DNA of 64,000 nt, from sequence record PZ445530.1. One strand, given 5' to 3'. Source of the stretch: a phage. This document shows positions 477-39,133 of the stretch, in pieces (positions within the stretch are counted from its first letter, which is position 1; each line of letters starts with the position of its first letter). A model generated the notes under the pieces. That model was not told where the DNA came from, did not search any database, and worked only from the letters and a program-made list of their open reading frames with translations. The position numbers were made by a program, and so were the translations under genes.

Positions 477-2548
477 TGGCAACAGCTGTTTTTAAACCTT
501 ACCGTGATTACTCTACAATGGCTGCACAGTTTCATTACCGCACAGTTCAGGATACTGCCGTTCCTGGTAGAGATTATGATCATGTTGAGGGCGATGTAAC
601 TATCCCAGTTGGGGCAACCAGTATTGAGATCCCAGTGGAAATTGTTGACAAATTACCCAACAGGTTGCCAAGAAGCTTCTTTATGGAGTTTTCATCAAAA
701 TCTCAAGGGGTGATGATTGGAACACAAAGGGCGAAATGTACAATAGTTTCAGATGAGAATCTTGACAGGATATCTTGGGATACTGTTGAGGAGAGAATGT
801 TTCACCCCAGGTATTGGGTTACAACTACTCAGCAGACTGAAAGTACCTGTATTGTTGCAGATAACAACTGTTGTATTAACCGTTTAGTGTCAAGAACATA
901 TGGGGGTATGGCTGGGTGCATTTGGGAAACAGTTGACAAGTATGACCATTTCGGTATTGGGTTTGATGATCACTATGAGATGAGAAACACCAAGCTTTGG
1001 TTCAGAATGTCAATAACCAACGCCAGCAACTTCTCCACTCCTGAAAAGATGATTATGACTGTAGACCTTGTTGATGGCACAATCATCTATGTTCCTTTAG
1101 CTCAATATGCTGTCAGCATCTCAGAGGATAAAAATGTTGCAGAAATTCATATTGATTTTGAGGACTGCGTCGGGATGGACCAGAACAACAACATGATGGG
1201 TGTTGATCCTCGGCAGGTGAGAAGGATTTTAATACCACTTATGCCTAAAGACTGGGTAAGTAATAGCACAGATCCAAGAACGGAAAATGTAGAGTGTGAG
1301 TTGCGCCTAGATCTGCTTCAGCCAGACACAGGCTGGAAAATGATGCAGCTTAATAATATCCAGGTGAGAGAGCACGACGTTGGGATCTGCACCGCATATG
1401 ACGATATGTGGAACGTGTCCCCTTTAAGGGTGTTGAACAATATCAAGCGTCTGGGCTATACCGGAACCATAAACCATTATGTTGGTATGAGTCATTATTA
1501 TGACTACACATGGTCAGGAACCCAATGGTCTATAAACAGAACAGGAGCGCTAAACGCTGCAGCTTATAAATGGCATGATGATTTTATGTACAATGCTAAA
1601 CGACATAACTTCGACGTTATGCAATCTGTAAGTTTTGAGCTTTTCAGCGATGCCTGCCCGTTGGAATGGACCCAAAGAGACTGGAACGATAACTACGCTA
1701 AAACAGGGTATACACCTTGTAGCTACCTCCTGTCTCCAACCATTGAAGAGGGTATGAATTTCCTTACTGCAGTATTTAAGAATTTTGCATCAGCCGCTAT
1801 GAGAAACAACCTGCCAGTGATTATGCAGGTTGGTGAACCGTGGTGGTGGTACAATACCGATACTCGTAGACCTTGTATTTATGATTACCCTACAAAACAG
1901 GCGTTTTATGATGAGACAGGCGAGTATGCATTAGATATTGGGACTATTGACGATCCTAAAACTGGCGGTGTTTACGATAAGTATGTAGCATTTTGTCGTG
2001 GTAAGCTTGGCGCTCGTATTGCGGCTATTTCAAAGGCAATAAAGGCACACGCTGCATCAGCTCAGATGACAGCTCTGCTGTTTTTCCCAACCATTATGGA
2101 AACCGAGCTTACGCAAAAGCTTAACCTTGCTGACCAATATAAAAAGGAAGCAGGTGCTCTTGATTTCTTCTGCACCGAGTGCTACGATTGGGTGATGCAG
2201 GGAGGTATTGAAAAGGCAAAAGAGTCTGTAAACATACCTATCGTTAAGTTAGGTTGGCAACCGTCTGAAATACAATACCTTGCAGGGTTCGTTCCTAGTA
2301 AAGAGCTTGCTCCGGTATATGGTTACGACCCAACCAGGAATTACCAAGAATTTTTATGGAGATGTATTTGCGGAAACATGGCAACTATAGAGTATAGATA
2401 TCCTGAGGTAAAACAGTATGTGTGGGCATACCCGCAAGTAATGTCTGACAGCATCACTGTTACCGCTAGAGATTCTACCGTGCTTCATATGGGGCAGGTT
2501 GCTCTGAAAGGGTATGTAGAAGATGTTGTCCCGCCAGACTTCTCATAA
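476..2548 (+). CDS. hypothetical virion/tail-associated protein (690 aa)
   Basis: Long ORF with AGGAG-type RBS before ATG; heads the tail-fibre block; no catalytic motif recognised. Confidence 0.6.
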   Translation: MATAVFKPYRDYSTMAAQFHYRTVQDTAVPGRDYDHVEGDVTIPVGATSIEIPVEIVDKLPNRLPRSFFMEFSSKSQGVMIGTQRAKCTIVSDENLDRISWDTVEERMFHPRYWVTTTQQTESTCIVADNNCCINRLVSRTYGGMAGCIWETVDKYDHFGIGFDDHYEMRNTKLWFRMSITNASNFSTPEKMIMTVDLVDGTIIYVPLAQYAVSISEDKNVAEIHIDFEDCVGMDQNNNMMGVDPRQVRRILIPLMPKDWVSNSTDPRTENVECELRLDLLQPDTGWKMMQLNNIQVREHDVGICTAYDDMWNVSPLRVLNNIKRLGYTGTINHYVGMSHYYDYTWSGTQWSINRTGALNAAAYKWHDDFMYNAKRHNFDVMQSVSFELFSDACPLEWTQRDWNDNYAKTGYTPCSYLLSPTIEEGMNFLTAVFKNFASAAMRNNLPVIMQVGEPWWWYNTDTRRPCIYDYPTKQAFYDETGEYALDIGTIDDPKTGGVYDKYVAFCRGKLGARIAAISKAIKAHAASAQMTALLFFPTIMETELTQKLNLADQYKKEAGALDFFCTECYDWVMQGGIEKAKESVNIPIVKLGWQPSEIQYLAGFVPSKELAPVYGYDPTRNYQEFLWRCICGNMATIEYRYPEVKQYVWAYPQVMSDSITVTARDSTVLHMGQVALKGYVEDVVPPDFS

Positions 2549-2560
2549 TCAGGAGATAAA

Positions 2561-3601
2561 ATGTCAAAACCTAGTTTTCCATTAGAGATTTGGGCAGAGG
2601 AGGATCAGGTTCTGCCTAACACCCACAGACAGAACAGGCTACGCCCGATTGATGATTTGTGGAGAAAAGGTTGGGATCTTGGTCAAAAGCCCTCATGTGA
2701 AGAACTTAACTATATTTTCAATATGCTCGGGACTTGGGCAAAATACATCGCTGACGAGCAGATCCCCGCTCAAGAAGGCCGTTATCTGGTACGTGATAAT
2801 AACTTGAGTGATCTTTTGAACATTCCTGTTGCCCGTAGAAACCTTGGGATTATTACTAAGGAAGAGGCAGACGCCAGGTATGTAAAAGTTACAGGTGATA
2901 CAATGACAGGCCCATTGGGTTTGCAACGTATCAACTTTAAAGCTGCCGAGTCAGATAAGGCTTGGATAGAGACAACTATTGGCCCAGATAAGACAACTCT
3001 CGACTTTGGGTTAAGTGATAATACCGGGTCGTTTGATGATGGTGGTACATCTACAGTGGATGCGTTCCGTTGGAGATTCCAGCCAACTCAGCCGGATATT
3101 AATCCAGAGTTCACTTTGATGTACCTTAACGCGATCACGGCTAACCGTGCGCTGTTGAAAGTGGTAGGCAATGTTGAAGTTGTCGATAACATGAGGTGCA
3201 ATAACCTTACTATCAGCAATACAGCGACATTCACCAACTGTAATGTGGCTAGTCAGTTGACGGCTGGGTCAGTGTATGTTAATGGTGGTGCAAGTTGTGA
3301 CAGTATGGTTGTAAGAAGCCAGCACTGTGTTGTCGGTAACAGAAATGTGGTTCGCTCTGTGAACGGAGTGACGGCTAACGGTAACGGTGATGTAACGATC
3401 ACTATCCCGCAGACAGGTGTGCAAGACATCAGAATCGGTGCAAGACTTGTGGACGGAGTTTCTGAATCTCCAATCCGCAACGGCTACGTTGTCACAGGCT
3501 GGCATTTCGGTGACAAAAAAGAGATGCGTGGTTCAACCTACTGGGCAGGACCTTTACAAAAACTTGTAAATGGTCAATGGATCACTGTTAATTATGCATA
3601 G
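2561..3601 (+). CDS. tail fibre protein, paralog A (346 aa)
   Basis: RBS caggag before ATG; shares PLEIWA..., DGFRWRFQP, LNAITANRA, RNVVRxVNG and C-terminal QKLVNGQWIT(V/I)xYA with ORF 4616-5659; followed by a Tfa-like chaperone gene. Confidence 0.65.
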   Translation: MSKPSFPLEIWAEEDQVLPNTHRQNRLRPIDDLWRKGWDLGQKPSCEELNYIFNMLGTWAKYIADEQIPAQEGRYLVRDNNLSDLLNIPVARRNLGIITKEEADARYVKVTGDTMTGPLGLQRINFKAAESDKAWIETTIGPDKTTLDFGLSDNTGSFDDGGTSTVDAFRWRFQPTQPDINPEFTLMYLNAITANRALLKVVGNVEVVDNMRCNNLTISNTATFTNCNVASQLTAGSVYVNGGASCDSMVVRSQHCVVGNRNVVRSVNGVTANGNGDVTITIPQTGVQDIRIGARLVDGVSESPIRNGYVVTGWHFGDKKEMRGSTYWAGPLQKLVNGQWITVNYA

Positions 3602-3615
3602 ATCGGAGGACTAGC

Positions 3616-4200
3616 ATGAAAATACTTCAAGAGTTTAAACTTTACCAACCGGGATCTGGCGAATACCGCACCAACAAGGAAACCAAGGAGCTGACCCCTC
3701 AAGAGGTTGAGGATTACACAGCATGCACTGGGTATTTTTTACGTAATGATGATGGCGATTGGTATGTGCAGTCACGAACATTACGACAAGAAAATCCGGG
3801 GTGTATCTTCCTACTTGTTGACGAGAAGGGAATTCTTAAGACATCTACAGAAGAACCTGATGCCTTATGGCCTGCTCCAGGTCTTCGTGTGGTTATCGCC
3901 AAAAAAGAAGAGGTACCAGAAAACATTATGCTTCACCACGACGCTTTGCGTTTAGTTGGTGATGAATTTGTCACAGACAATGAATTCTTTGTTCAACAGG
4001 CAGAGGGTGTCATAGAGACAGAACTTGCTTGGGCTACTGCTAGAATTGGTGCCTATCAAGACATGATTGACCTTGAATATGATCTTACTGATGACCAGAA
4101 ACGTAACATCAGAGATTTGAAAATGTACAGGGTAAAACTTCTTGAAATAGATACATCTAAAGCCCCTGACATTTTCTTCCCGGAGCGACCTACCCTCTAA
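3616..4200 (+). CDS. tail fibre assembly protein (lambda Tfa-like)
   Basis: C-terminus YRVKLLEIDTSKAPDIFFPERP closely matches lambda Tfa C-terminus [22 protein letters not shown] (recalled from memory); positioned directly after a fibre gene. Confidence 0.65.
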   Translation: MKILQEFKLYQPGSGEYRTNKETKELTPQEVEDYTACTGYFLRNDDGDWYVQSRTLRQENPGCIFLLVDEKGILKTSTEEPDALWPAPGLRVVIAKKEEVPENIMLHHDALRLVGDEFVTDNEFFVQQAEGVIETELAWATARIGAYQDMIDLEYDLTDDQKRNIRDLKMYRVKLLEIDTSKAPDIFFPERPTL

Positions 4201-4211
4201 GAGGAGGTGTT

Positions 4212-4526
4212 GTGGAGTTGGATTTGGCGGCATTGTACGGTATCTGCATGGGTACCGTTGTCCCGATCTGTGTATGGGCTTTCAACCAGTGGCACACCAA
4301 ATGGAAAGGCATTTCCAAGAGGTTGGATGAACTGGAGAAAGACCTCATCTTAGTGAAAAACAGTATGGTTACAAAAGATAAACTTGATTCCGTTATCGAG
4401 ACCCGGTTAAGTAAGCTAGAGGCCGATATTAACGACCTTAAGCAGGATGTCAGGACAGATGTCTCCGGTATCCGAGCTGATGTACAAAAGATTTTGCACA
4501 TGCTCGTAGAGCATAGTAAAAGGTAA
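4212..4526 (+). CDS. small protein with N-terminal hydrophobic segment and coiled-coil-like C-terminus
   Basis: GTG start 5 nt after GAGGAGG; hydrophobic N-terminus (LAALYGICMGTVVPICVWAF). Confidence 0.45.
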   Translation: MELDLAALYGICMGTVVPICVWAFNQWHTKWKGISKRLDELEKDLILVKNSMVTKDKLDSVIETRLSKLEADINDLKQDVRTDVSGIRADVQKILHMLVEHSKR

Positions 4527-4534
4527 ACAAAGGT

Positions 4535-4568
4535 CAGAACGGAAAGGACTCCGTTCTTGCATTTTGTT
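4535..4568 (+). terminator. putative intrinsic terminator
   Basis: 7-bp stem AGAACGG/CCGTTCT with 9-nt loop followed by T-rich tract. Confidence 0.4.
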
Positions 4569-4615
4569 CCCTAAAGTGTTAAAATAGTCCTAAGGAATTT
4601 TCTCAGGAGAACGTG

Positions 4616-5659
4616 ATGACTAAACCAGTTATCCCTCTTGATATTTGGGCCAATCAGGATGTTGTGCTTGAAAATACGGGAGAGTTGAATAAGTCTCAAC
4701 CAAAAAAAGAAGAGAGATTGAAAGGTTGGGATATGACACAAAGAGTGGCATGTGAAGTTGTTAACTTTGAACTTCACATGCTTTCTGCGTGGTTGAAGCA
4801 TTTAACAGAAGATGTTGTCCCAGGATGGGATAATAGATTCTTAAGGGTCACTAATAATCTAGCAGACGTTCCAGACAAAGCTGCTGCACGTCAAGTTCTC
4901 AATGTATACTCACCTGAAGAAATGGACGATCTATATGTTGACAAGTCTGGAGACATAATGACTCAGACTCAAACTTTAGGTCTTCAAAGAATCGAGTTTG
5001 CATCTGCGTCAACAGACAGTGCGGCAATATATACCACCATAACTCCAGACAAGACGACGATGGATTTCTGGATTATGGACAACATCGGTGGTGCTGACGG
5101 CACAGACCTTGATGATCCTTCTCACCAAATAGATGGGTTCCGTTGGAGATTTCAACCTTCTGGTGGGCAGCCTGTGTTTTCAGCTATGAAGCTCAATGCT
5201 ATAACTGCCAACCGTGCAAGACTGGCTATCCAAGGAAATCTTGAATGCAACGATGCAAAAAGTTCCTCTGCAAATGCCAATGCGGTCACGATACCAAGAG
5301 CCACTGTTAATGGACAACAATCCTGCGGAAGCGCTCAAATAGGTGGAAGAGTTGATTGTAACGATGAAACCGTCAGGGGCCAATATGCAACAGTTGGTGG
5401 AAGAAACGTGGTCCGCAGGGTAAATGGTAACGGCGCAGACAGTAGCGGTAACCTTACTATCCCTATGCCTAGCAGAGGGGTTGATGATGTAAGGATAGCA
5501 AACCGTTTTAAAACCACCTACAGAGAGTCAAGAGTCTACCCTGGACATGTGATGTGCTCTGGTAACTACGCTTATAAACACCCTTATCAAGGTGATTACT
5601 GGACAGGTGCTATCCAAAAACTTGTAAATGGTCAATGGATCACTATATCTTATGCTTAA
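4616..5659 (+). CDS. tail fibre protein, paralog B (347 aa)
   Basis: ATG after aggaga RBS; paralogous to 2561-3601 with the same conserved blocks and C-terminal QKLVNGQWITISYA. Confidence 0.65.
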   Translation: MTKPVIPLDIWANQDVVLENTGELNKSQPKKEERLKGWDMTQRVACEVVNFELHMLSAWLKHLTEDVVPGWDNRFLRVTNNLADVPDKAAARQVLNVYSPEEMDDLYVDKSGDIMTQTQTLGLQRIEFASASTDSAAIYTTITPDKTTMDFWIMDNIGGADGTDLDDPSHQIDGFRWRFQPSGGQPVFSAMKLNAITANRARLAIQGNLECNDAKSSSANANAVTIPRATVNGQQSCGSAQIGGRVDCNDETVRGQYATVGGRNVVRRVNGNGADSSGNLTIPMPSRGVDDVRIANRFKTTYRESRVYPGHVMCSGNYAYKHPYQGDYWTGAIQKLVNGQWITISYA

Positions 5660-32622: not shown

Positions 32623-33387
32623 TTGAAATTTATCTACAAAGAACACTACCACAAAGGTGTTGTGTGGAGTCTATTTGACGGGTCTGGTGGTGCAGTCATT
32701 GACTGGGCAAAAGCTGGGTACCTGTGCCTGTGCTTTAATGCAGAAGGCGCTGATCACGGCAGTTATGCAGAGGTGATCACCGATCATCCCAACATTCACT
32801 ATGTGGACTATTGGATCGACCCGTGGTTCCCTCAGGAAACTTTTTGCATGTATCCGGCTCCAGATTTTATTCTTGCATTTCCTCCGTGCACGCATTTAGC
32901 GGTATCAGGTGCTGCACATTTTAAGAAAAAGCTGGCTAAGGACCCCATGATCCAAATTAATGCTGTAAAGGATGCTCGGGTTGCGGAAGAGCTGGGAGAG
33001 ATTTACGATTGCCCGTGGCATGTAGAGAATCCTGTGGGTGTTATGTCCACACTGTGGCGCAAACCTGATTACCGTTTTCACCCTTCGGATTATGGCGGGT
33101 ATTTACCGGAAGATGATGTAAACCCATGGTTTCCTGAATTTATAGCTCCACGTGATGCCTATCCAAAAATAACTTGCGGCTGGATAGGTAATGGATTTAT
33201 AATCCCAGCCACAAAACCTGTCCCGCAAATAGTTGACGCGGTTAGCGGGTATTCCATGCAACACGCCAAGCTGGGTGGAAAGAGTGCAAGAACGAAGATG
33301 ATTCGAAGCCTCACACCACGTGGCTGGGCAAAAGCCGTATTCCTAGCAAACGAGCCTGTAGTAAGGAGCAGAATTAATGGGAAGTAA
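32623..33387 (+). CDS. C5-cytosine DNA methyltransferase-like protein (compact, non-canonical)
   Basis: TTG start 7 nt after AGGAGA; motif I-like SLFDGSGG, motif IV-like FPPCTHLAVSGA (Gln replaced by Thr), motif VI-like HVENPVG in canonical order. Confidence 0.45.
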   Translation: MKFIYKEHYHKGVVWSLFDGSGGAVIDWAKAGYLCLCFNAEGADHGSYAEVITDHPNIHYVDYWIDPWFPQETFCMYPAPDFILAFPPCTHLAVSGAAHFKKKLAKDPMIQINAVKDARVAEELGEIYDCPWHVENPVGVMSTLWRKPDYRFHPSDYGGYLPEDDVNPWFPEFIAPRDAYPKITCGWIGNGFIIPATKPVPQIVDAVSGYSMQHAKLGGKSARTKMIRSLTPRGWAKAVFLANEPVVRSRINGK

Positions 33388-35455
33388 ATTTATGGCATCT
33401 GCATACAACCGTTTCGGTGAGCCAAACCCGAAAGCAACTAAGTATAAAAGTGGGGGAAGTGTGAAACGAGACTATCGTGATGAAAAAGAAGTTGAAACTG
33501 TAGAGACTGTTTTAGAAAATACTAAAATTGTCCCTGTCCCACAACAAAATATCGGTCTGATGGCTGCACAATATTTTGGTGTGCGATCAGCATTGTCACA
33601 AGAAGACGGTGTGACAGTCACTGCAACATATTTCCCATATTACGACCGCTACGGAAATCTGTCCGGTTTCAAAAAGCGTGACTGGACTATTCCTAAAGAA
33701 CAAAGGGGCCACTTCTCCGTTGTTGGCATCGTAAAGGCCAACTCCCAGATGTTTGGTCAAAAGCTGTGTGCATCTTCCAACAACCGTAAGCAGATTAACG
33801 TTTGTGAGGGGGAAGGTGATGTTATTGCAGCATGGCAGGCTGCATATCAGATACAAGTAAAAGGGATTCTCACCAACGCTAAAGCCCCGGCAAAGGTGAA
33901 GCAGTGGGCTAAAGAAGTCCAGGACGGGATCGATGCAGTTATCAACGGTGGTGATCTGGCAGGAAAACCATGCCTGCCTTTTGTTGGAATTAACTGTGGA
34001 TGTGCAAACGCAGTAGATACTTTTGCAAACAATGAGAAGTTTATCCGTAGCTATGGAACAGTTGTGCTGGCAATGGATAACGATGCAGCTAACGAGGTAG
34101 AGAAGCAAAAACACGTCATTAAAGGTGTTGAGGCCACGCACAATATCGCAGCATTTTTGATGGCTGATAACGTTTACCACGTAGAATACCCTGGTGAAGT
34201 AAACGACCCTGACGGTGTAAAAGATATCCGAGACATGCTGAAGGCTAAAAAGCTGGAAGATATTGTCAACATGTTCCGGCATCCTGTTAAATATGTGCCT
34301 GATGCGGTGTCGGATTTAGAAGACTTCTCTATCGAGTCTTTGCGGAAAAAGACTTCCAACGGGGTAGATATCAGCGCAGAGTTCCCAAAACTGCAAAAAA
34401 TGCTAAAAGGCTTGCACAAAGGGACACTCGTAATGCTTACAGGTCCATCAGGTGGCGGTAAAACAACCGTAGCTAAAAAACTGGAACACTGTATTGCAAG
34501 ATACCTAATGGACCCGACATGCCCGAAGGCTGATGACTATGAAGAGGATGATCGTCTATGTATGATCCATCTTGAGGAGGACCCAGAGGAAGCAATTAAC
34601 TCCTTGTATGCAAACCAGTTAGGGTTTGATGTTAAAGAGTTTGTTGAAGATCCTAGCCAGTTTTTAACTGATCAAGAACACGCAGAGATTCACCAATCAT
34701 GGGCAAAAGCTGGAAAAATCAAAGTGTTCAAACATTTCGGGTCTATTCCGGTGGATGAGTTGATTACCAAGCTTAAGCAAATGGTTTGCCTGTACCATTG
34801 CCGTTATATTGTGCTGGATCACCTGTCCATGGTAATTTCAGGGCTTAATGTTAAGGATGAGCGAAAAGAACTGGACATGGCTATGACTCAGCTGGCTGCG
34901 TTTTGTAAGCAGTTTAACGTGTTTATCTTGGTGATCGCTCACCTCAAACGTACAGAGATTGTGCCTCCTAAGGACAAGGATGGTAACCCGTTACCTTTCT
35001 GGTATCCTGTGCGAAAAGAGAATTTGCGAGGATCGGCGGGGCTTGAACAGTTGAGTTGGGTAGTCATAGGTGTCGAGGCCGAAGAAATGGTGGATCGTTC
35101 TCGTGGACGTGTCCGTCTGGTAGGTCTTAAAAACCGTCCAGCAAAAACTCTAGGTATTGCTGACACTTTGGTTATGGACCCGCACACAGGTAAGTTCCAT
35201 GATGCCAGTAATTGGTACTGGGACAAAGAAATGCAAATGTTTACAGACGGAGAAGGTGGGGAGGTTGTTTGGAGACCTCAGGCTATGTTTGAGGATCAGG
35301 AGCATGCAGTTGTAGAAACACCTATGGGCAAGGTTGTGGCTGATAAGGTTGTAACTCCTACTGTTAAGCCTGTTGACACGCAGGAAGACCTCCAGTACGA
35401 TGATCCGTCCTCTGACCATGTTCCTGGTTTTGAGGATGATGAAACACCTTTTTAA
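33377..35455 (+). CDS. DNA primase-helicase (TOPRIM primase + DnaB-like helicase, T7 gp4-type)
   Basis: TOPRIM motifs VCEGEGD and VLAMDNDAANE; helicase Walker A GPSGGGKTT and Walker B IVLDHLS. Confidence 0.75.
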   Translation: MGSKFMASAYNRFGEPNPKATKYKSGGSVKRDYRDEKEVETVETVLENTKIVPVPQQNIGLMAAQYFGVRSALSQEDGVTVTATYFPYYDRYGNLSGFKKRDWTIPKEQRGHFSVVGIVKANSQMFGQKLCASSNNRKQINVCEGEGDVIAAWQAAYQIQVKGILTNAKAPAKVKQWAKEVQDGIDAVINGGDLAGKPCLPFVGINCGCANAVDTFANNEKFIRSYGTVVLAMDNDAANEVEKQKHVIKGVEATHNIAAFLMADNVYHVEYPGEVNDPDGVKDIRDMLKAKKLEDIVNMFRHPVKYVPDAVSDLEDFSIESLRKKTSNGVDISAEFPKLQKMLKGLHKGTLVMLTGPSGGGKTTVAKKLEHCIARYLMDPTCPKADDYEEDDRLCMIHLEEDPEEAINSLYANQLGFDVKEFVEDPSQFLTDQEHAEIHQSWAKAGKIKVFKHFGSIPVDELITKLKQMVCLYHCRYIVLDHLSMVISGLNVKDERKELDMAMTQLAAFCKQFNVFILVIAHLKRTEIVPPKDKDGNPLPFWYPVRKENLRGSAGLEQLSWVVIGVEAEEMVDRSRGRVRLVGLKNRPAKTLGIADTLVMDPHTGKFHDASNWYWDKEMQMFTDGEGGEVVWRPQAMFEDQEHAVVETPMGKVVADKVVTPTVKPVDTQEDLQYDDPSSDHVPGFEDDETPF

Positions 35456-35513: not shown

Positions 35514-38500
35514 ATGAGCATGTGGTCGTTCGATTTTGAGTCATCCGGTTTGCTGGAAGACCCAGATCTTTATTATCACTGCGGCCTGTTTAAAGAGCTG
35601 AATAAGAACCGTTTTATGCTGTTCCTTCCTCTGAATGACCGCACACACTACTCCGAGGAGGATATAGAGAAGGCCAAGAACTTTATTCTGGCAAAGAAAA
35701 CTCTTTATAAGGATTTTGAAGTTCGCATAGCAGATTTTTCGGAGTTGGAAGGTTGGCTTACAGGAAATTCCGACTGGTCACCAACAGCTTTGAACTGCCA
35801 TAACTGCTACAGTTATGACTTTATGCTGATGGAGAGATTATCCGGTATTCATTTTGATATGTTCCGTGATCCTAAATGTATGGGGACTATCAACGACCAC
35901 CAGGTTAACCTGTTTGATACGTTGGCGATGAGCCGAATCTTGTGGCCTGATCGCCCTTTACCAAAAGGTTGTCCGGACTCCGTATTCAACCCGGTTACTA
36001 AGAAAATGCAGCCTGTTGGTCCTCACGGCCTTATGGCATGGGGCTACGCCCTTGGTAACCAGAAAGTTCAAATTGATGATTGGCGCGATCTTCCGTTGTG
36101 GAAGTATGTGGATCGTGTATTCGAGGACGTTATCATCCAGGAGCTACTCTGGAAAGAGCTGGTAGCGGAATCAAAAGGTGTATTCTACGGCAAATCTGAC
36201 ATGCAGAACTTTATGTACGATCCTGCCAAAGAGAAGCCGAAAGGGTTCAAGAAGATCACCTGGAAGAACGCATTGCGCCGGGGTATGCTGCAACACTTCC
36301 TGATGGAGCTGCAGGCCCGTCAGGGTGTGTATTTTGACATAGATGGAGCTATTGCTTTACGTGACCGTTGCGATGCGTGGATGAAAGAAATCGCTGATCG
36401 TGTTGAACCACAACTGCCTTTAAAAGAGCTGTCAATGTCTCAGCGGCCCAAGTTCCCTGAAAAGCCGTTTAACCAAGATGGGACAATCTCTAATAATGGT
36501 TGGAAATGGTTAAAAGATAAGCTTGGCTATCCTGTGGACATGAGTGCTTTAGAGTTCAAAGCCCCACCTAAGCGAGCATTTACCTCTACAGGAGATGTCA
36601 GTAAGATGGGGATAAAATGGTGTGAAGAGATGGGCTGCAAAGACCACGATAAGATGGCTGATTTCTTGAGAGGCTATATTAAGGGCACCTCCACACCACA
36701 ACCTTTACCTAAAGAGCTGATGGATCAGGCAATAAGCGATCTGCAGCAGAAGCGAATGCCTGACTGCAAGATACCTATGAAAATCAGCAATCAGGACGAT
36801 ATTAAGCGATACCTGATCAGTGCTGGTTGGCTTCCGACAATGTGGAGAACTAAGGATGTAACTAAAGACAGCAAGAAGAAAGCTTTACCTGATGCAGATG
36901 TTGATGCACGAGTATATGCATATATGGACGAGCTTTTGGAGTCAGAGTATTGTGACCTAATTATCAACTTCTGGAACAAAACTGATGCTAAGTTCCAGAC
37001 AACCGTGCACAAGTTCCGAAGCTTTCCTAACTCCGAAAGGATTAAAAAGGAAGTATTCGGGAAAATACGTAGAAAAGCTAGGGCACTTATTACTTCTCCG
37101 CAACTGAAAGATACGTTTGGACACCTGTGTCCGAATCTTGAAAAATTGAACGGAGAGATGGCTAAAGATATCGTCTTATGGTTATCATTGCGAAACCGCA
37201 GATCGGTACTTGATCCAATCAAGGAGGATAAGGTTGACACTGGTCTTCTTAATCACCCACGTTTGAAGATTGACCATAAGCTTCCTGCTAAAAGCTCTGG
37301 ATTAACAAACACTTCCAGACAGAAACACAGTATTTGTGCAAACATGCCTAAACCCTCTCCTAAAGTGGTTATGGGTAAAGAGATGCGTAGCTTGTGGGGT
37401 GTTCCTCCAGGATACTTTGAGATCGGTATCGACGGGTCCAACTTAGAGCAGCTTATCGGGGCTTGGGGTGCCTTTGAGTTCGACAACGGCCTGTATTACG
37501 ATGTTGTAAGTAACGGAGACGCACACCAAAACAATGCTGAGGCATATACAAAAGTAGCAGGCAGAGAGGTGTCCCGTAACGACGGTAAACCTATCACGTA
37601 TGGGGTTATGTACGGGGCACAAAAAGATAAAGTTGCAGATATGCTGGACATCTCTCCAGAGTTGGGACAAAGGGTAATCGATGCGCTTTGGGATGCCAAC
37701 CCTGGTCTTAAGGGCCGTAAAGAGGATCTGGAGAAATTCTGGGAAGCAACGGGTAAGAAGTTTATCTACTCTTTTGATGGTCATGCCATCTGGACCCGAT
37801 CTAAACACTCTTTACTTAATGCATACCAACAGAATGGTGGTGCATCGCTGTGTGACTTGGTTGGGATACTTATGCACCACCAAATGGTGAAGCGTGGGTG
37901 GTACGATGAAGGTGTTCGTCGTATTATCTATTACCATAAATAACATTGTGGCTTCGTGCAGTGATGCACGTCGAAAACCTCTTTAATTGACGGGAAGGCT
38001 AAGTTGACTTTTACACCTAAACATGGTAAAAGCTCAATATGCTAATCCGCAGCGAAGACTAAAGGGGTGTAGTTAAAATGGCTAGATCAGTTGAGTATCA
38101 CGGATATACCGTGTTTGATGATGGAACAATACCTTTATCGAAACGTGATCATACAACAATGTTTTGTTTTGATAATGGTCGAGGTTACCTTTGCGTAACC
38201 ATGTTCATCGAGGGGAAGCAGTGCACAAAAGGTGTCCACCACTTGGTTGCTGAATGCTTTGTATCAAACCCTGATCCTGAAAGGCTCACATGGGTGAACC
38301 ATAAGGACGGAAACAAATACAACAATGCATACTGGAACCTTGAATGGACCACCCCTGGTGGAAATATCAAACACGCTTATGATAATGACCTCAGAGTAAG
38401 GCCAGTCGGTGAGTATAATGCCAACGCTGTACTGACCGAGGATGAGGTAACGGAGATTTGCGAACTGTTACAAAGTGGTTTACGACAATGCGAGATTAGG

Positions 38501-39133
38501 GATCTTGGGTATCCTTATGAGACGGTCAGAGCCATAAAGCAAAGAAGACAGTGGAAACATATCTCTAAAAACTACACCTGGTAGTAACGTTCAGAGACTA
38601 TCGAAAGCATAGCGCCAACATAAATTGGTGCGAAGAAGCGAGTAGAGTAGACCAGCAAGTGCGGTCGAAATGGGAGGTGCCTTGGTAACAAGGTAGTGAG
38701 ATAGTCCGATCCATACAGGAAACTGTATGGCTGTGCACGTAATGGTGCGGGGTAGCTTAACGACCTACCTGAACTATTGGATGAGTACCAACTTCAAGTC
38801 CCTGACACACCGAAGTATAAGACTGTGTACACCTTCGACACAATTGAAGAATTGGAAGCATTTAAGGCAGAGCAGGAGGCCAAACTTCATGTGTTCGACG
38901 GTCATAAGTACAAAAAGGCACGCAAGGATGAAAACGGAAACGAAGTGGTTGACAGAGACGGAAACACGGTGTACGATCCTATCTTGAACGATGACGGAAA
39001 GCTTGAACTTATCTGGAGTCCTGTGGGCGAAATGGTGGTACATTGCTTCTGGCAAGCTTCTAAAATGATGGGAGTCCCGTTCCAGATCACAGGTGAATAC
39101 TTGTGTGGTCGTAATTGGGGTGATTGTCACTAA
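35514..39133 (+). CDS. family A DNA polymerase with 3'-5' exonuclease, interrupted by a group I intron (exon 1 35514-37937, exon 2 38780-39133)
   Basis: Exo I FDFES; motif A GIDGSNLEQL; motif B KPITYGVMYGAQ; splicing joins ...RIIYYH to DEYQLQV giving motif C HDE; C-terminus NWGDCH resembles T7 polymerase end. Confidence 0.8.
37938..38779 (+). mobile_element. group I self-splicing intron carrying an HNH endonuclease ORF
   Basis: Exon ends in U; internal guide GUGG pairs with exon CCAU; P2 hairpin CGTGCA-GTGA-TGCACG; P-like AATTGACGGGAAGG (37985-37998); Q AATCCGCAGC (38044-38053); R GTTCAGAGACTA (38589-38600); S-like GAGATAGTCC (38698-38707); terminal G at 38779. Confidence 0.75.
38078..38584 (+). 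CDS. HNH homing endonuclease (intron-encoded)
   Basis: HHLVAECF...NHKDGNKYNNAYWNLEW HNH/AP2-type motif; lies between intron Q and R elements. Confidence 0.8.
   Translation: MARSVEYHGYTVFDDGTIPLSKRDHTTMFCFDNGRGYLCVTMFIEGKQCTKGVHHLVAECFVSNPDPERLTWVNHKDGNKYNNAYWNLEWTTPGGNIKHAYDNDLRVRPVGEYNANAVLTEDEVTEICELLQSGLRQCEIRDLGYPYETVRAIKQRRQWKHISKNYTW

Follow-up and report, generated by a model that had tools for sequence, protein, structure and literature searches.

Organization of the Polymerase Locus

The sequence analyzed was a stretch of phage DNA of 64,000 nucleotides (nt; record PZ445530.1, one strand, 5' to 3'), hereafter the window, in which positions 35514–39133 hold the DNA polymerase locus of a Vequintavirus (rV5-like) coliphage genome. 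A megablast search of this locus against phage genomes matched 121 records, mostly Escherichia Vequintavirus at 93–97% identity; the matched Vequintavirus records are rV5-like myoviruses with genomes of about 135–140 kb. The polymerase gene is divided into two exons by an 842-nt element, which is very probably a group I intron of subgroup IA (IA2-like), self-splicing and mobile, lying between the His and Asp codons of polymerase motif C. The features of the locus were as follows.

35514–37937, + strand, DNA polymerase exon 1, 808 codons ending ...RRIIYYH (open reading frame list, uninterrupted homologues)
37938–38779, + strand, group I intron, IA (IA2-like), 842 nt (Rfam RF00028, intron-less alleles, covariation)
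38078–38584, + strand, predicted HNH homing-endonuclease open reading frame, 168 amino acids (phmmer to I-HmuI, tblastn to I-BasI)
38780–39133, + strand, DNA polymerase exon 2, 117 codons and stop, DEYQLQV...NWGDCH

The list of open reading frames (ORFs) held an 809-codon ORF at 35514–37943 ending ...RRIIYYHK*, and the frame of exon 2 resumed as DEYQLQV... and ran to 39133. Exon 1 closes with CGT ATT ATC TAT TAC CAT and exon 2 opens in frame with GAT GAG TAC CAA (DEYQ), giving a predicted spliced polymerase of 925 amino acids (aa; 2424 + 354 = 2778 bp). Exon 1 comprises the N-terminal exonuclease region, palm and fingers of a family A polymerase as far as the His of motif C; it had a weak Pfam DNA_pol_A match and also aligned with T7 gp5. 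When the spliced polymerase was compared with T7 gp5 by BLASTP, an alignment was obtained across 469–658 (E 3e-20), ending HDEIQV / HDEYQL, in which the restored YYHDEYQL stood opposite WVHDEIQV of T7, the HDE being H653-D654-E655 of motif C. We take the His of this HDE to be residue 881 of E. coli Pol I. The C-terminus (...GRNWGDCH) parallels that of T7 (...GPNWAICH) in a collinear BLAST segment that is weak (E 0.21) and on which the assignment of a T7-like C-terminus solely depends. Exon 2 alone, searched against PDB sequences, returned no meaningful relative.

Splice Junction and Intron-Less Alleles

A tblastn query of 214 aa across the predicted ligation point aligned in a single piece, at 100% identity in vB_EcoM_YN3 and at 99.5% in each of V18, nom and inoa. 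The polymerase coding sequences (CDSs) of YN3 and V18 were uninterrupted and measured 2778 bp (925 aa), exactly the sum of exons 1 and 2, and intron-less alleles read ...YYH|DEYQLQV at the predicted junction. At the DNA level, the intron-less alleles read ...TATTACCAT|GACGAATATCAG... and the window ...TATTACCAT[842 nt]GATGAGTACCAA..., with a predicted ligated junction in the window transcript of UAUUACCAU|GAUGAGUAC (CAU|GAUGAG). Around the insertion site, intron-less YN3 and V18 carried ...TATTACCATGACGAATATCAGCTT... and the spliced-type exon ...CATGATGAGTACCAACTT.... Neither boundary can be shifted, since the first and last bases of the intron are A and G and the exon bases next to them are T and G. 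The intron's 5' end, AAAUAA, provides an in-frame stop in unspliced RNA, and its 3' end is omega-G38779.

Each of the 14 intron-bearing alleles compared closed exon 1 with CAU (U at -1) and opened exon 2 with GAUG (+1 to +4); among the intron-less alleles the junction varied, with CAT or CAC followed by GAC or GAT. Four synonymous substitutions, all in the opening 12 nt of exon 2 (GAC>GAT, GAA>GAG, TAT>TAC and CAG>CAA, from intron-less to intron-plus), separated the two kinds of Vequintavirus allele, and the roughly 100 nt neighbouring this cluster had no differences correlating with intron state. JLBYU08 retained just one of the four changes, the GAT relevant to P10. Such clustering may be the usual footprint of co-conversion or of target-site immunity beside a homing site.

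These results agree with the first-pass annotation, made from the letters of the window, which had placed the end of exon 1 (...RIIYYH) at U37937 and the return of the frame (DEYQLQV) behind G38779 after a gap of 842 nt. The YHDE of motif C that it proposed to be rebuilt was recovered both in the alignment with T7 gp5 and in the intron-less alleles, and its T7-like C-terminus, NWGDCH, found its parallel in T7 NWAICH through the weak collinear segment described above. It had also suggested alignment to intron-less polymerases, and YN3 and V18 proved contiguous over 925 aa, with HDE crossing the exact junction.

Group I Core and Secondary Structure

Searched by E-value with cmscan (local scan), the locus matched Rfam Intron_gpI over the complete model (1–253) at 37928–38729, with 39.1 bits and an E-value of 3.7e-8. 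In an E-value scan of the whole 64-kb window, Intron_gpI (E 1.8e-6) was the sole match at E <= 0.01, and a second intron was not found. In the Rfam alignment, 510 nt were inserted within the loop of P6 and a further 49 nt following P7. The structural elements were assigned as listed.

37934–37951, + strand, P1, exon CCAU plus intron AA (37934–37939) with guide UUGUGG (37946–37951)
38780–38783 with 37944–37947, + strand, possible P10, GAUG with CAUU (complementarity in sequence)
37955–37970, + strand, P2 hairpin CGUGCA-GUGA-UGCACG with GNRA loop (6 of 6 pairs with compensatory changes)
37978–38053, + strand, 5' half of the core (Rfam alignment, strand registers, pairing)
37978–37983 with 38672–38677, + strand, P3 (Rfam alignment, inspection, covariation)
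37985–37998, + strand, P element AATTGACGGGAAGG (read from sequence)
37988–37994 with 38046–38051, + strand, P4, with J3/4 and A37990 bulged (Rfam alignment, inspection, covariation)
37997–37999 with 38041–38043, + strand, P5, with an extended P5a arm between (37997–38043; Rfam alignment, inspection)
38044–38053, + strand, Q element AATCCGCAGC (read from sequence)
38052–38053 with 38589–38590, + strand, P6 (Rfam alignment, inspection)
38058–38061 with 38582–38585, + strand, P6a, ACUA with UAGU (sequence complementarity; covaries)
38066–38074 with 38570–38578, + strand, P6b, GGUGUAGUU with AACUACACC (sequence complementarity)
38589–38707, + strand, 3' half of the core (Rfam alignment, pairing, covariation)
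38589–38600, + strand, R element GTTCAGAGACTA (read from sequence)
G38594 and 38596–38600 with 38702–38707, + strand, P7 (Rfam alignment, covariation)
38601–38646, + strand, P7.1 region (length too variable for the covariation test)
38647–38649, + strand, GUA linker between the P7.1 region and P7.2
38650–38666, + strand, P7.2, GACCaGC/GCGGUC (both partners changed in 5 of 6 pairs)
38678–38695, + strand, P8, UGCCUUG-GUAA-CAAGGUA, followed by J8/7 (Rfam alignment, covariation)
38698–38707, + strand, S element GAGATAGTCC (read from sequence)
38711–38779, + strand, peripheral 3' domain: P9, P9.1, P9.2, then UGAACUAUUG ending in omega-G
38711–38730, + strand, P9 with GAAA loop (covaries)
38735–38748, + strand, P9.1 (covaries)
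38751–38769, + strand, P9.2 (covaries)

Covariation was assessed over 65 pairs in 14 homologous introns. Helix strands were extracted through anchored patterns and concatenated before the pairs were counted; a MAFFT alignment of the ORF-trimmed introns was not column-accurate in P3, P4 and P8 and was left out of the counts. Standard pairs occupied 99.6% of 910 cells, and changes on both sides were found in 36 of the 65 pairs (157 cells). The covariation score was 0.509, against 0.205 ± 0.012 in shuffles, none of 500 reaching as high, and pairing fell to 27–35% in slid controls, in which partners were shifted by 1–3 columns. Compensatory changes were present in every helix but P1, including P3, P4 and P7 of the catalytic core. 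P1 itself was paired in 14/14 homologues, with GUGG (37948–37951) opposite exon CCAU (37934–37937) and a U37937.G37948 wobble at the 5' splice site; CCAU, GUGG and the wobble were invariant, and in phiA019 one distal A-U pair was replaced by G.U. A minimum free energy fold of the natural ORF-less intron of JLBYU08 recovered P4-P5-P5a, P6/P6a, P7.2, P8, P9 and P9.1 (z = -2.16).

Subgroup IA2 is marked by the extra helices P7.1 and P7.2, joined by G-U-A, between P7 and P3' (PMC3428280). The window intron has a P7.1 region, a GUA linker and P7.2 in this arrangement.

The P, Q, R and S core elements, the GUGG guide facing exon CCAU, the P2 hairpin and an HNH ORF between Q and R, all of which the first-pass annotation had proposed, are in place at the listed positions (for the ORF, with I-HmuI homology at E 4.4e-6), and the group I intron in the polymerase gene that it called is upheld by the Rfam match, the exact junction and the covariation. 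The Intron_gpI scan that it had suggested turned out less simply: the match stood by E-value (3.7e-8) and fell short of the 50-bit gathering score.

The HNH Open Reading Frame

The 168-aa ORF sits in the loop of P6b, between Q and R. The 3' strands of P6b and P6a are made up of its last codons (AAC UAC ACC) and its UAG stop, and its Shine-Dalgarno-like GGGGUG falls within the 5' strand of P6b; translation of the ORF presumably competes with folding of the intron. In the Avunavirus Av-05, P6b pairing was preserved through a G-C to A-U change, the G-to-A on the 5' strand being balanced by a synonymous UAC-to-UAU in the ORF.

A phmmer comparison with I-HmuI (PDB 1U3E) gave E 4.4e-6 over residues 12–100 (window VHHLVA...VNHKDGNKYNN...NLEW, 1U3E VHRLVA...VDHKDGNKDNN...NLRW), in which the HKDGNK..NN...NLEW motif was conserved, and tblastn with the ORF also matched I-BasI. 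The product is a putative site-specific endonuclease. The ORF was intact, at 168 aa, in all sequenced carriers examined. Between carriers, synonymous codon differences exceeded non-synonymous ones (74 against 48 in the comparison with Av-05, for example), even with roughly four times as many non-synonymous sites, which indicates that the protein is under purifying selection.

Distribution at a Single Insertion Site

Searches by blastn and tblastn, followed by retrieval of the loci, gave homologous introns that in every case followed the CAT of YYH (DYH in phiA019) and preceded GATGA. The 14 same-site introns span Vequintavirus, Avunavirus, Seunavirus, Certrevirus and an Aeromonas phage, in the following forms.

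Vequintavirus, intron with HNH ORF, 842 nt
JEP1 and JLBYU08, ORF-less, 328–329 nt
ORF-less, 276 nt, including the rV5 type phage, LL12 and EPFV3
Avunavirus Av-05, with HNH, 843 nt
Avunavirus 19-1-2, ORF-less, 317 nt
A5-4 and Certrevirus CR9, 772 nt
Seunavirus GEC_vB_MG, 771 nt
PVP-SE1, with LAGLIDADG ORF, 919 nt
Certrevirus CB7, 687 nt
Aeromonas phage phiA019, 843 nt

In A5-4, GEC_vB_MG, CR9 and phiA019, a P6a of 11 bp or 7 bp encloses the start and end of the homologous ORF. Among about 117 Vequintavirus-level records, some 33 had the ORF-containing intron, roughly 25–30 had an ORF-less one and the remainder were intron-free, these counts being estimates from blastn and tblastn coverage and identity bands. 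The intron was thus present in roughly half of the records, and patchily so among phages more than 95% identical.

Salmonella phage PVP-SE1 (locus 601–1519) carries its LAGLIDADG ORF after R, in the P7.1 region, and its P6a is an intact hairpin. The presence of LAGLIDADG instead of HNH signifies that the intron was invaded independently by a different endonuclease family. In phiA019 (Plateaulakevirus; locus 997–1839), the 843-nt intron with its homologous P6a ORF lies at the equivalent DYH|DEFAVE site, and its occurrence outside the Vequintavirinae points to transfer between distantly related phages. An IMG/VR scan for the 5' junction pattern of the intron returned 11 loci, eight on large, myovirus-type contigs of about 98–147 kb and three on fragments of 11–21 kb, with no complete T7-sized genome among them. 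Records labelled "Campylobacter phage" (host Campylobacter jejuni; GenBank MG0656xx), which are unannotated, also matched the locus (16 by megablast, 21 by tblastn), most at 96–97% identity and three at 86.6%; the host label looks doubtful.

This natural series of alleles at one site (intron-free, ORF-less, HNH and LAGLIDADG) in closely related, easily grown coliphages has modest value of its own, and would suit work on homing, co-conversion and phage–phage competition.

Recombination and Probable Mobility

The window intron was identical to that of AlexBoehm at 842 of 842 positions, and the adjacent exons were 95.8% and 96.9% identical. The identical tract extended over 964 nt (37881–38844), that is, the intron with 57 and 65 nt of exon, within flanks about 4% divergent; its upstream edge was marked by 7 mismatches in 50 nt. 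Comparison with phage isim gave a different pattern, the end of exon 1 having 2 mismatches in 237 nt, yet 37 intron positions differing. Over the first 790 nt of exon 1 (35514–36300), identity was 98% to isim and merely 78% to AlexBoehm. These contrasting identities along the gene indicate that the polymerase gene is a recombination mosaic, and the AlexBoehm-identical tract amid divergent flanks points to recent transfer of the intron.

Proposed Mechanism and Alternative Explanations

The element is very probably splicing-competent and very probably has been mobile recently. The polymerase gene would be transcribed into one pre-mRNA, in which the intron RNA would fold into a P1–P10 core. An external guanosine would attack after U37937, held in P1 by its U.G wobble with the guide GUGG; the freed exon 1 would then attack after omega-G38779, with P10 aligning the two, and the ligated mRNA would encode the 925-aa polymerase. 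Unspliced RNA would meet a stop two codons into the intron and yield a protein lacking the catalytic Asp and Glu. The I-HmuI-type HNH enzyme would most likely act on polymerase alleles that lack the intron in co-infecting relatives, nicking or cutting them close to the insertion site, after which recombinational repair would copy the intron and short exon flanks into the cut allele (homing).

Several observations weigh against this interpretation. A default gathering-threshold Rfam scan of the window returned nothing, as the intron scores 39.1 bits against the curated 50 bits of RF00028. P1 is essentially invariant and hence outside the reach of the covariation test, and the strand registers were hand-set to the proposed structure, so that the counts lean towards it. 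In the ORF, the Pfam HNH_3 cut-off was missed (17.7 against 24.8 bits, E 0.0027, residues 73–92 only), and Asn precedes the catalytic His where I-HmuI has Asp. The promoter scan found no promoter-like site inside the intron upstream of the ORF, with counts equal to those in shuffles; because of this and of the ribosome-binding site buried in P6b, expression of the ORF may be low. Splicing and endonuclease action in the window phage are themselves predictions from sequence.

The 510-nt ORF insert in P6, together with the insert of P7.1/P7.2, accounts for the low Rfam score. Homologues lacking the ORF at this site passed 50 bits (JLBYU08 72.5, JEP1 73.7, rV5 64.7 and 19-1-2 91.2), the ORF-less members and PVP-SE1 together clearing the gathering score at 54.4–91.2 bits, and the core of the JEP1 intron was 96.5% identical to that of the window. 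The conclusion from covariation is safe despite the hand-set registers because of the effect size and the slid controls.

The alternative that survives best is that the intron splices and is an immobile, vertically inherited passenger, its HNH ORF a decaying or inactive relic. The ORF-less forms of 276, 317 and 328–329 nt in many relatives would fit an ORF that is dispensable and has been lost, as would the sub-threshold HNH_3 match and the Asn in place of the Asp of I-HmuI. We nevertheless consider it unlikely, given that the ORF is intact in all carriers examined with a synonymous excess, that intron and ORF are distributed patchily among phages more than 95% identical, and that the four silent differences separating alleles with and without the intron cluster at the very start of exon 2, in its first 12 nt. 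The 964-nt tract shared with AlexBoehm in flanks about 4% divergent, on a backbone resembling that of isim, whose intron is 37 positions apart, also speaks for movement.

A second alternative, far less probable, is a split gene without splicing, in which the HNH gene and its flanks are a non-splicing insertion and two polypeptides, each translated on its own, make up the polymerase. The mobE insertion in nrdA of Aeromonas phage Aeh1, reportedly non-splicing, would be the model. GenBank records of most relatives do give two separate "DNA polymerase" CDSs, and one HNH-associated insertion in a different gene of CB7 did not splice (PMC7344957). However, the element has a complete group I core rich in compensatory changes, which would not be kept up in a spacer that does not splice, and ORF-less versions of 276–329 nt persist at the site. 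Exon 2 has neither ATG nor Shine-Dalgarno sequence, the only listed in-frame start being the terminal UUG of the intron; the interruption falls between H and DE of a single catalytic motif; and the CB7 homologue at the same site does splice (PMC7344957).

An intein or other in-frame protein-level element has a negligible probability, even though a true intein appears to lie elsewhere in the polymerase gene of some sister phages, since the RNA structure accounts fully for the element, read-through from exon 1 stops after one codon (AAA UAA) and 842 nt is not a multiple of three, which refutes it.

The preferred reading, a mobile self-splicing intron, can be extended to a wider proposal that we advance only tentatively and that is less likely than not to hold. 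The intron would be actively homing in present-day coliphages and serve as an interference weapon, its I-HmuI-like nuclease damaging the polymerase gene that is essential to co-infecting Vequintaviruses without the intron, with the four silent changes in exon 2 as the immunity determinant, and the family as a whole (HNH in P6a, LAGLIDADG in P7.1 in PVP-SE1, or ORF-less) would represent a complete cycle of endonuclease-gene gain, loss and replacement.

Annotation of Relatives and Neighbouring Features

For annotation, the consequence is that the polymerase should be given as one joined gene of 925 aa. In rV5 (NC_011041) and most relatives, exon 2 is still split off and entered, as are even spurious ORFs within the intron, as separate "hypothetical proteins". 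The 276-nt ORF-less intron of rV5 (locus 3001–3630) is unannotated, ORF 227 and ORF 226 being called within or across it; exon 2 is entered in RefSeq as a separate ORF 225, and the within-intron "hypothetical proteins" are spurious. The 2013 rV5 paper describes terminase introns only and gives the polymerase as 775 aa (PMC3606486).

Upstream of the polymerase lies a T7-gp4-like primase-helicase gene (33377–35455; Pfam DnaB_C and AAA_25). Two promoter-like sites with identical hexamers (TTGACA, 17 nt, TACGAT; 10/12 matches) were found at 35373–35401, upstream of the polymerase start, and at 38949–38977, inside exon 2; the number of sites in the region equalled the shuffled expectation.

In VB-EcoM-WM (locus 1501–4899), polymerase exon 1 contains a 969-bp in-frame insertion that is absent from the window. 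Its site corresponds to about 37526/37527 of the window, after codon 671 (GDAH|QNN). The 323-aa insert starts with Cys, ends ...VCGN followed by Cys and has LAGLIDADG-like blocks (LLIAIHDDGN), and so resembles an intein that carries a homing endonuclease. By CDS length it is also present in JEP1 and EPFV3, and probably, by span, in Mangalyan.

Comparison With Known Systems

The element is already known: near-identical phages have it in their annotation, and the class to which it belongs is long established. HNH-bearing IA2 introns in family A polymerases of phages have been known since the work on SPO1 and on phiI/W31, and nothing about the present intron is categorically new. In the GenBank record of AlexBoehm/Bas56 (MZ501048), whose 842-nt intron is 100% identical to that of the window in exons about 3–4% different, the polymerase appears as a CDS joined from two pieces that encloses a "putative homing endonuclease". 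The intron is likewise annotated in the other Vequintaviruses of the BASEL collection, EmilHeitz, HeinrichReichert and WalterGehring (Maffei et al. 2021, PMC8594841), in which boundaries of homing-endonuclease-associated introns were found by comparative annotation (PMC8594841). These sources cover the annotation of the intron, and not its structure, splicing or endonuclease.

The closest system with splicing data is Pectobacterium phage vB_PatM_CB7, whose HNH intron (CB7_50, between CB7_51 and CB7_49) was spliced in vivo, as determined by reverse transcription PCR and Sanger sequencing (PMC7344957). This polymerase intron 2 of CB7 has the site (YYH|DEYQLE) and guide sequence of the window intron and a homologous 3' core (P7.2–P9.2), but is 687 nt long, and its HNH ORF, which begins upstream of Q, runs through P4'/P6. 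A sigma-70-like TTGACA...TATGAT lies in its enlarged P5 arm, about 110–130 nt into the intron (start near locus position 2950). A second intron, which the window lacks, is present farther upstream in the CB7 polymerase gene; CB7 (at ...TYG|VMYGAQ) and Av-05 both have an additional intron or HNH gene in the upstream part of this gene.

Outside this group, the T7-like coliphages phiI and W31 have IA2 polymerase introns with an HNH ORF in P6a at Pol I position 881, according to PMC3428280. Compared by description only, these introns (Bonocora & Shub 2004, J Bacteriol 186:8153) resemble that of the window in their family A polymerase, P7.1-GUA-P7.2 and HNH, although their hosts are podoviruses of about 40 kb and those of the window intron are myoviruses of about 137 kb. 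The introns of SPO1, SP82, phi-e and Bastille (I-HmuI, I-HmuII, I-BasI) and of Pf-WMP3 (I-PfoP3I) are likewise of subgroup IA2, interrupt family A polymerases and encode HNH nicking endonucleases with the motif at the N-terminus, but lie at Pol I position 674–676, in the fingers, and not at 881 (PMC3428280). The window ORF has only about 30–40% protein identity with the SPO1-type endonucleases, over the N-terminal 90 residues.

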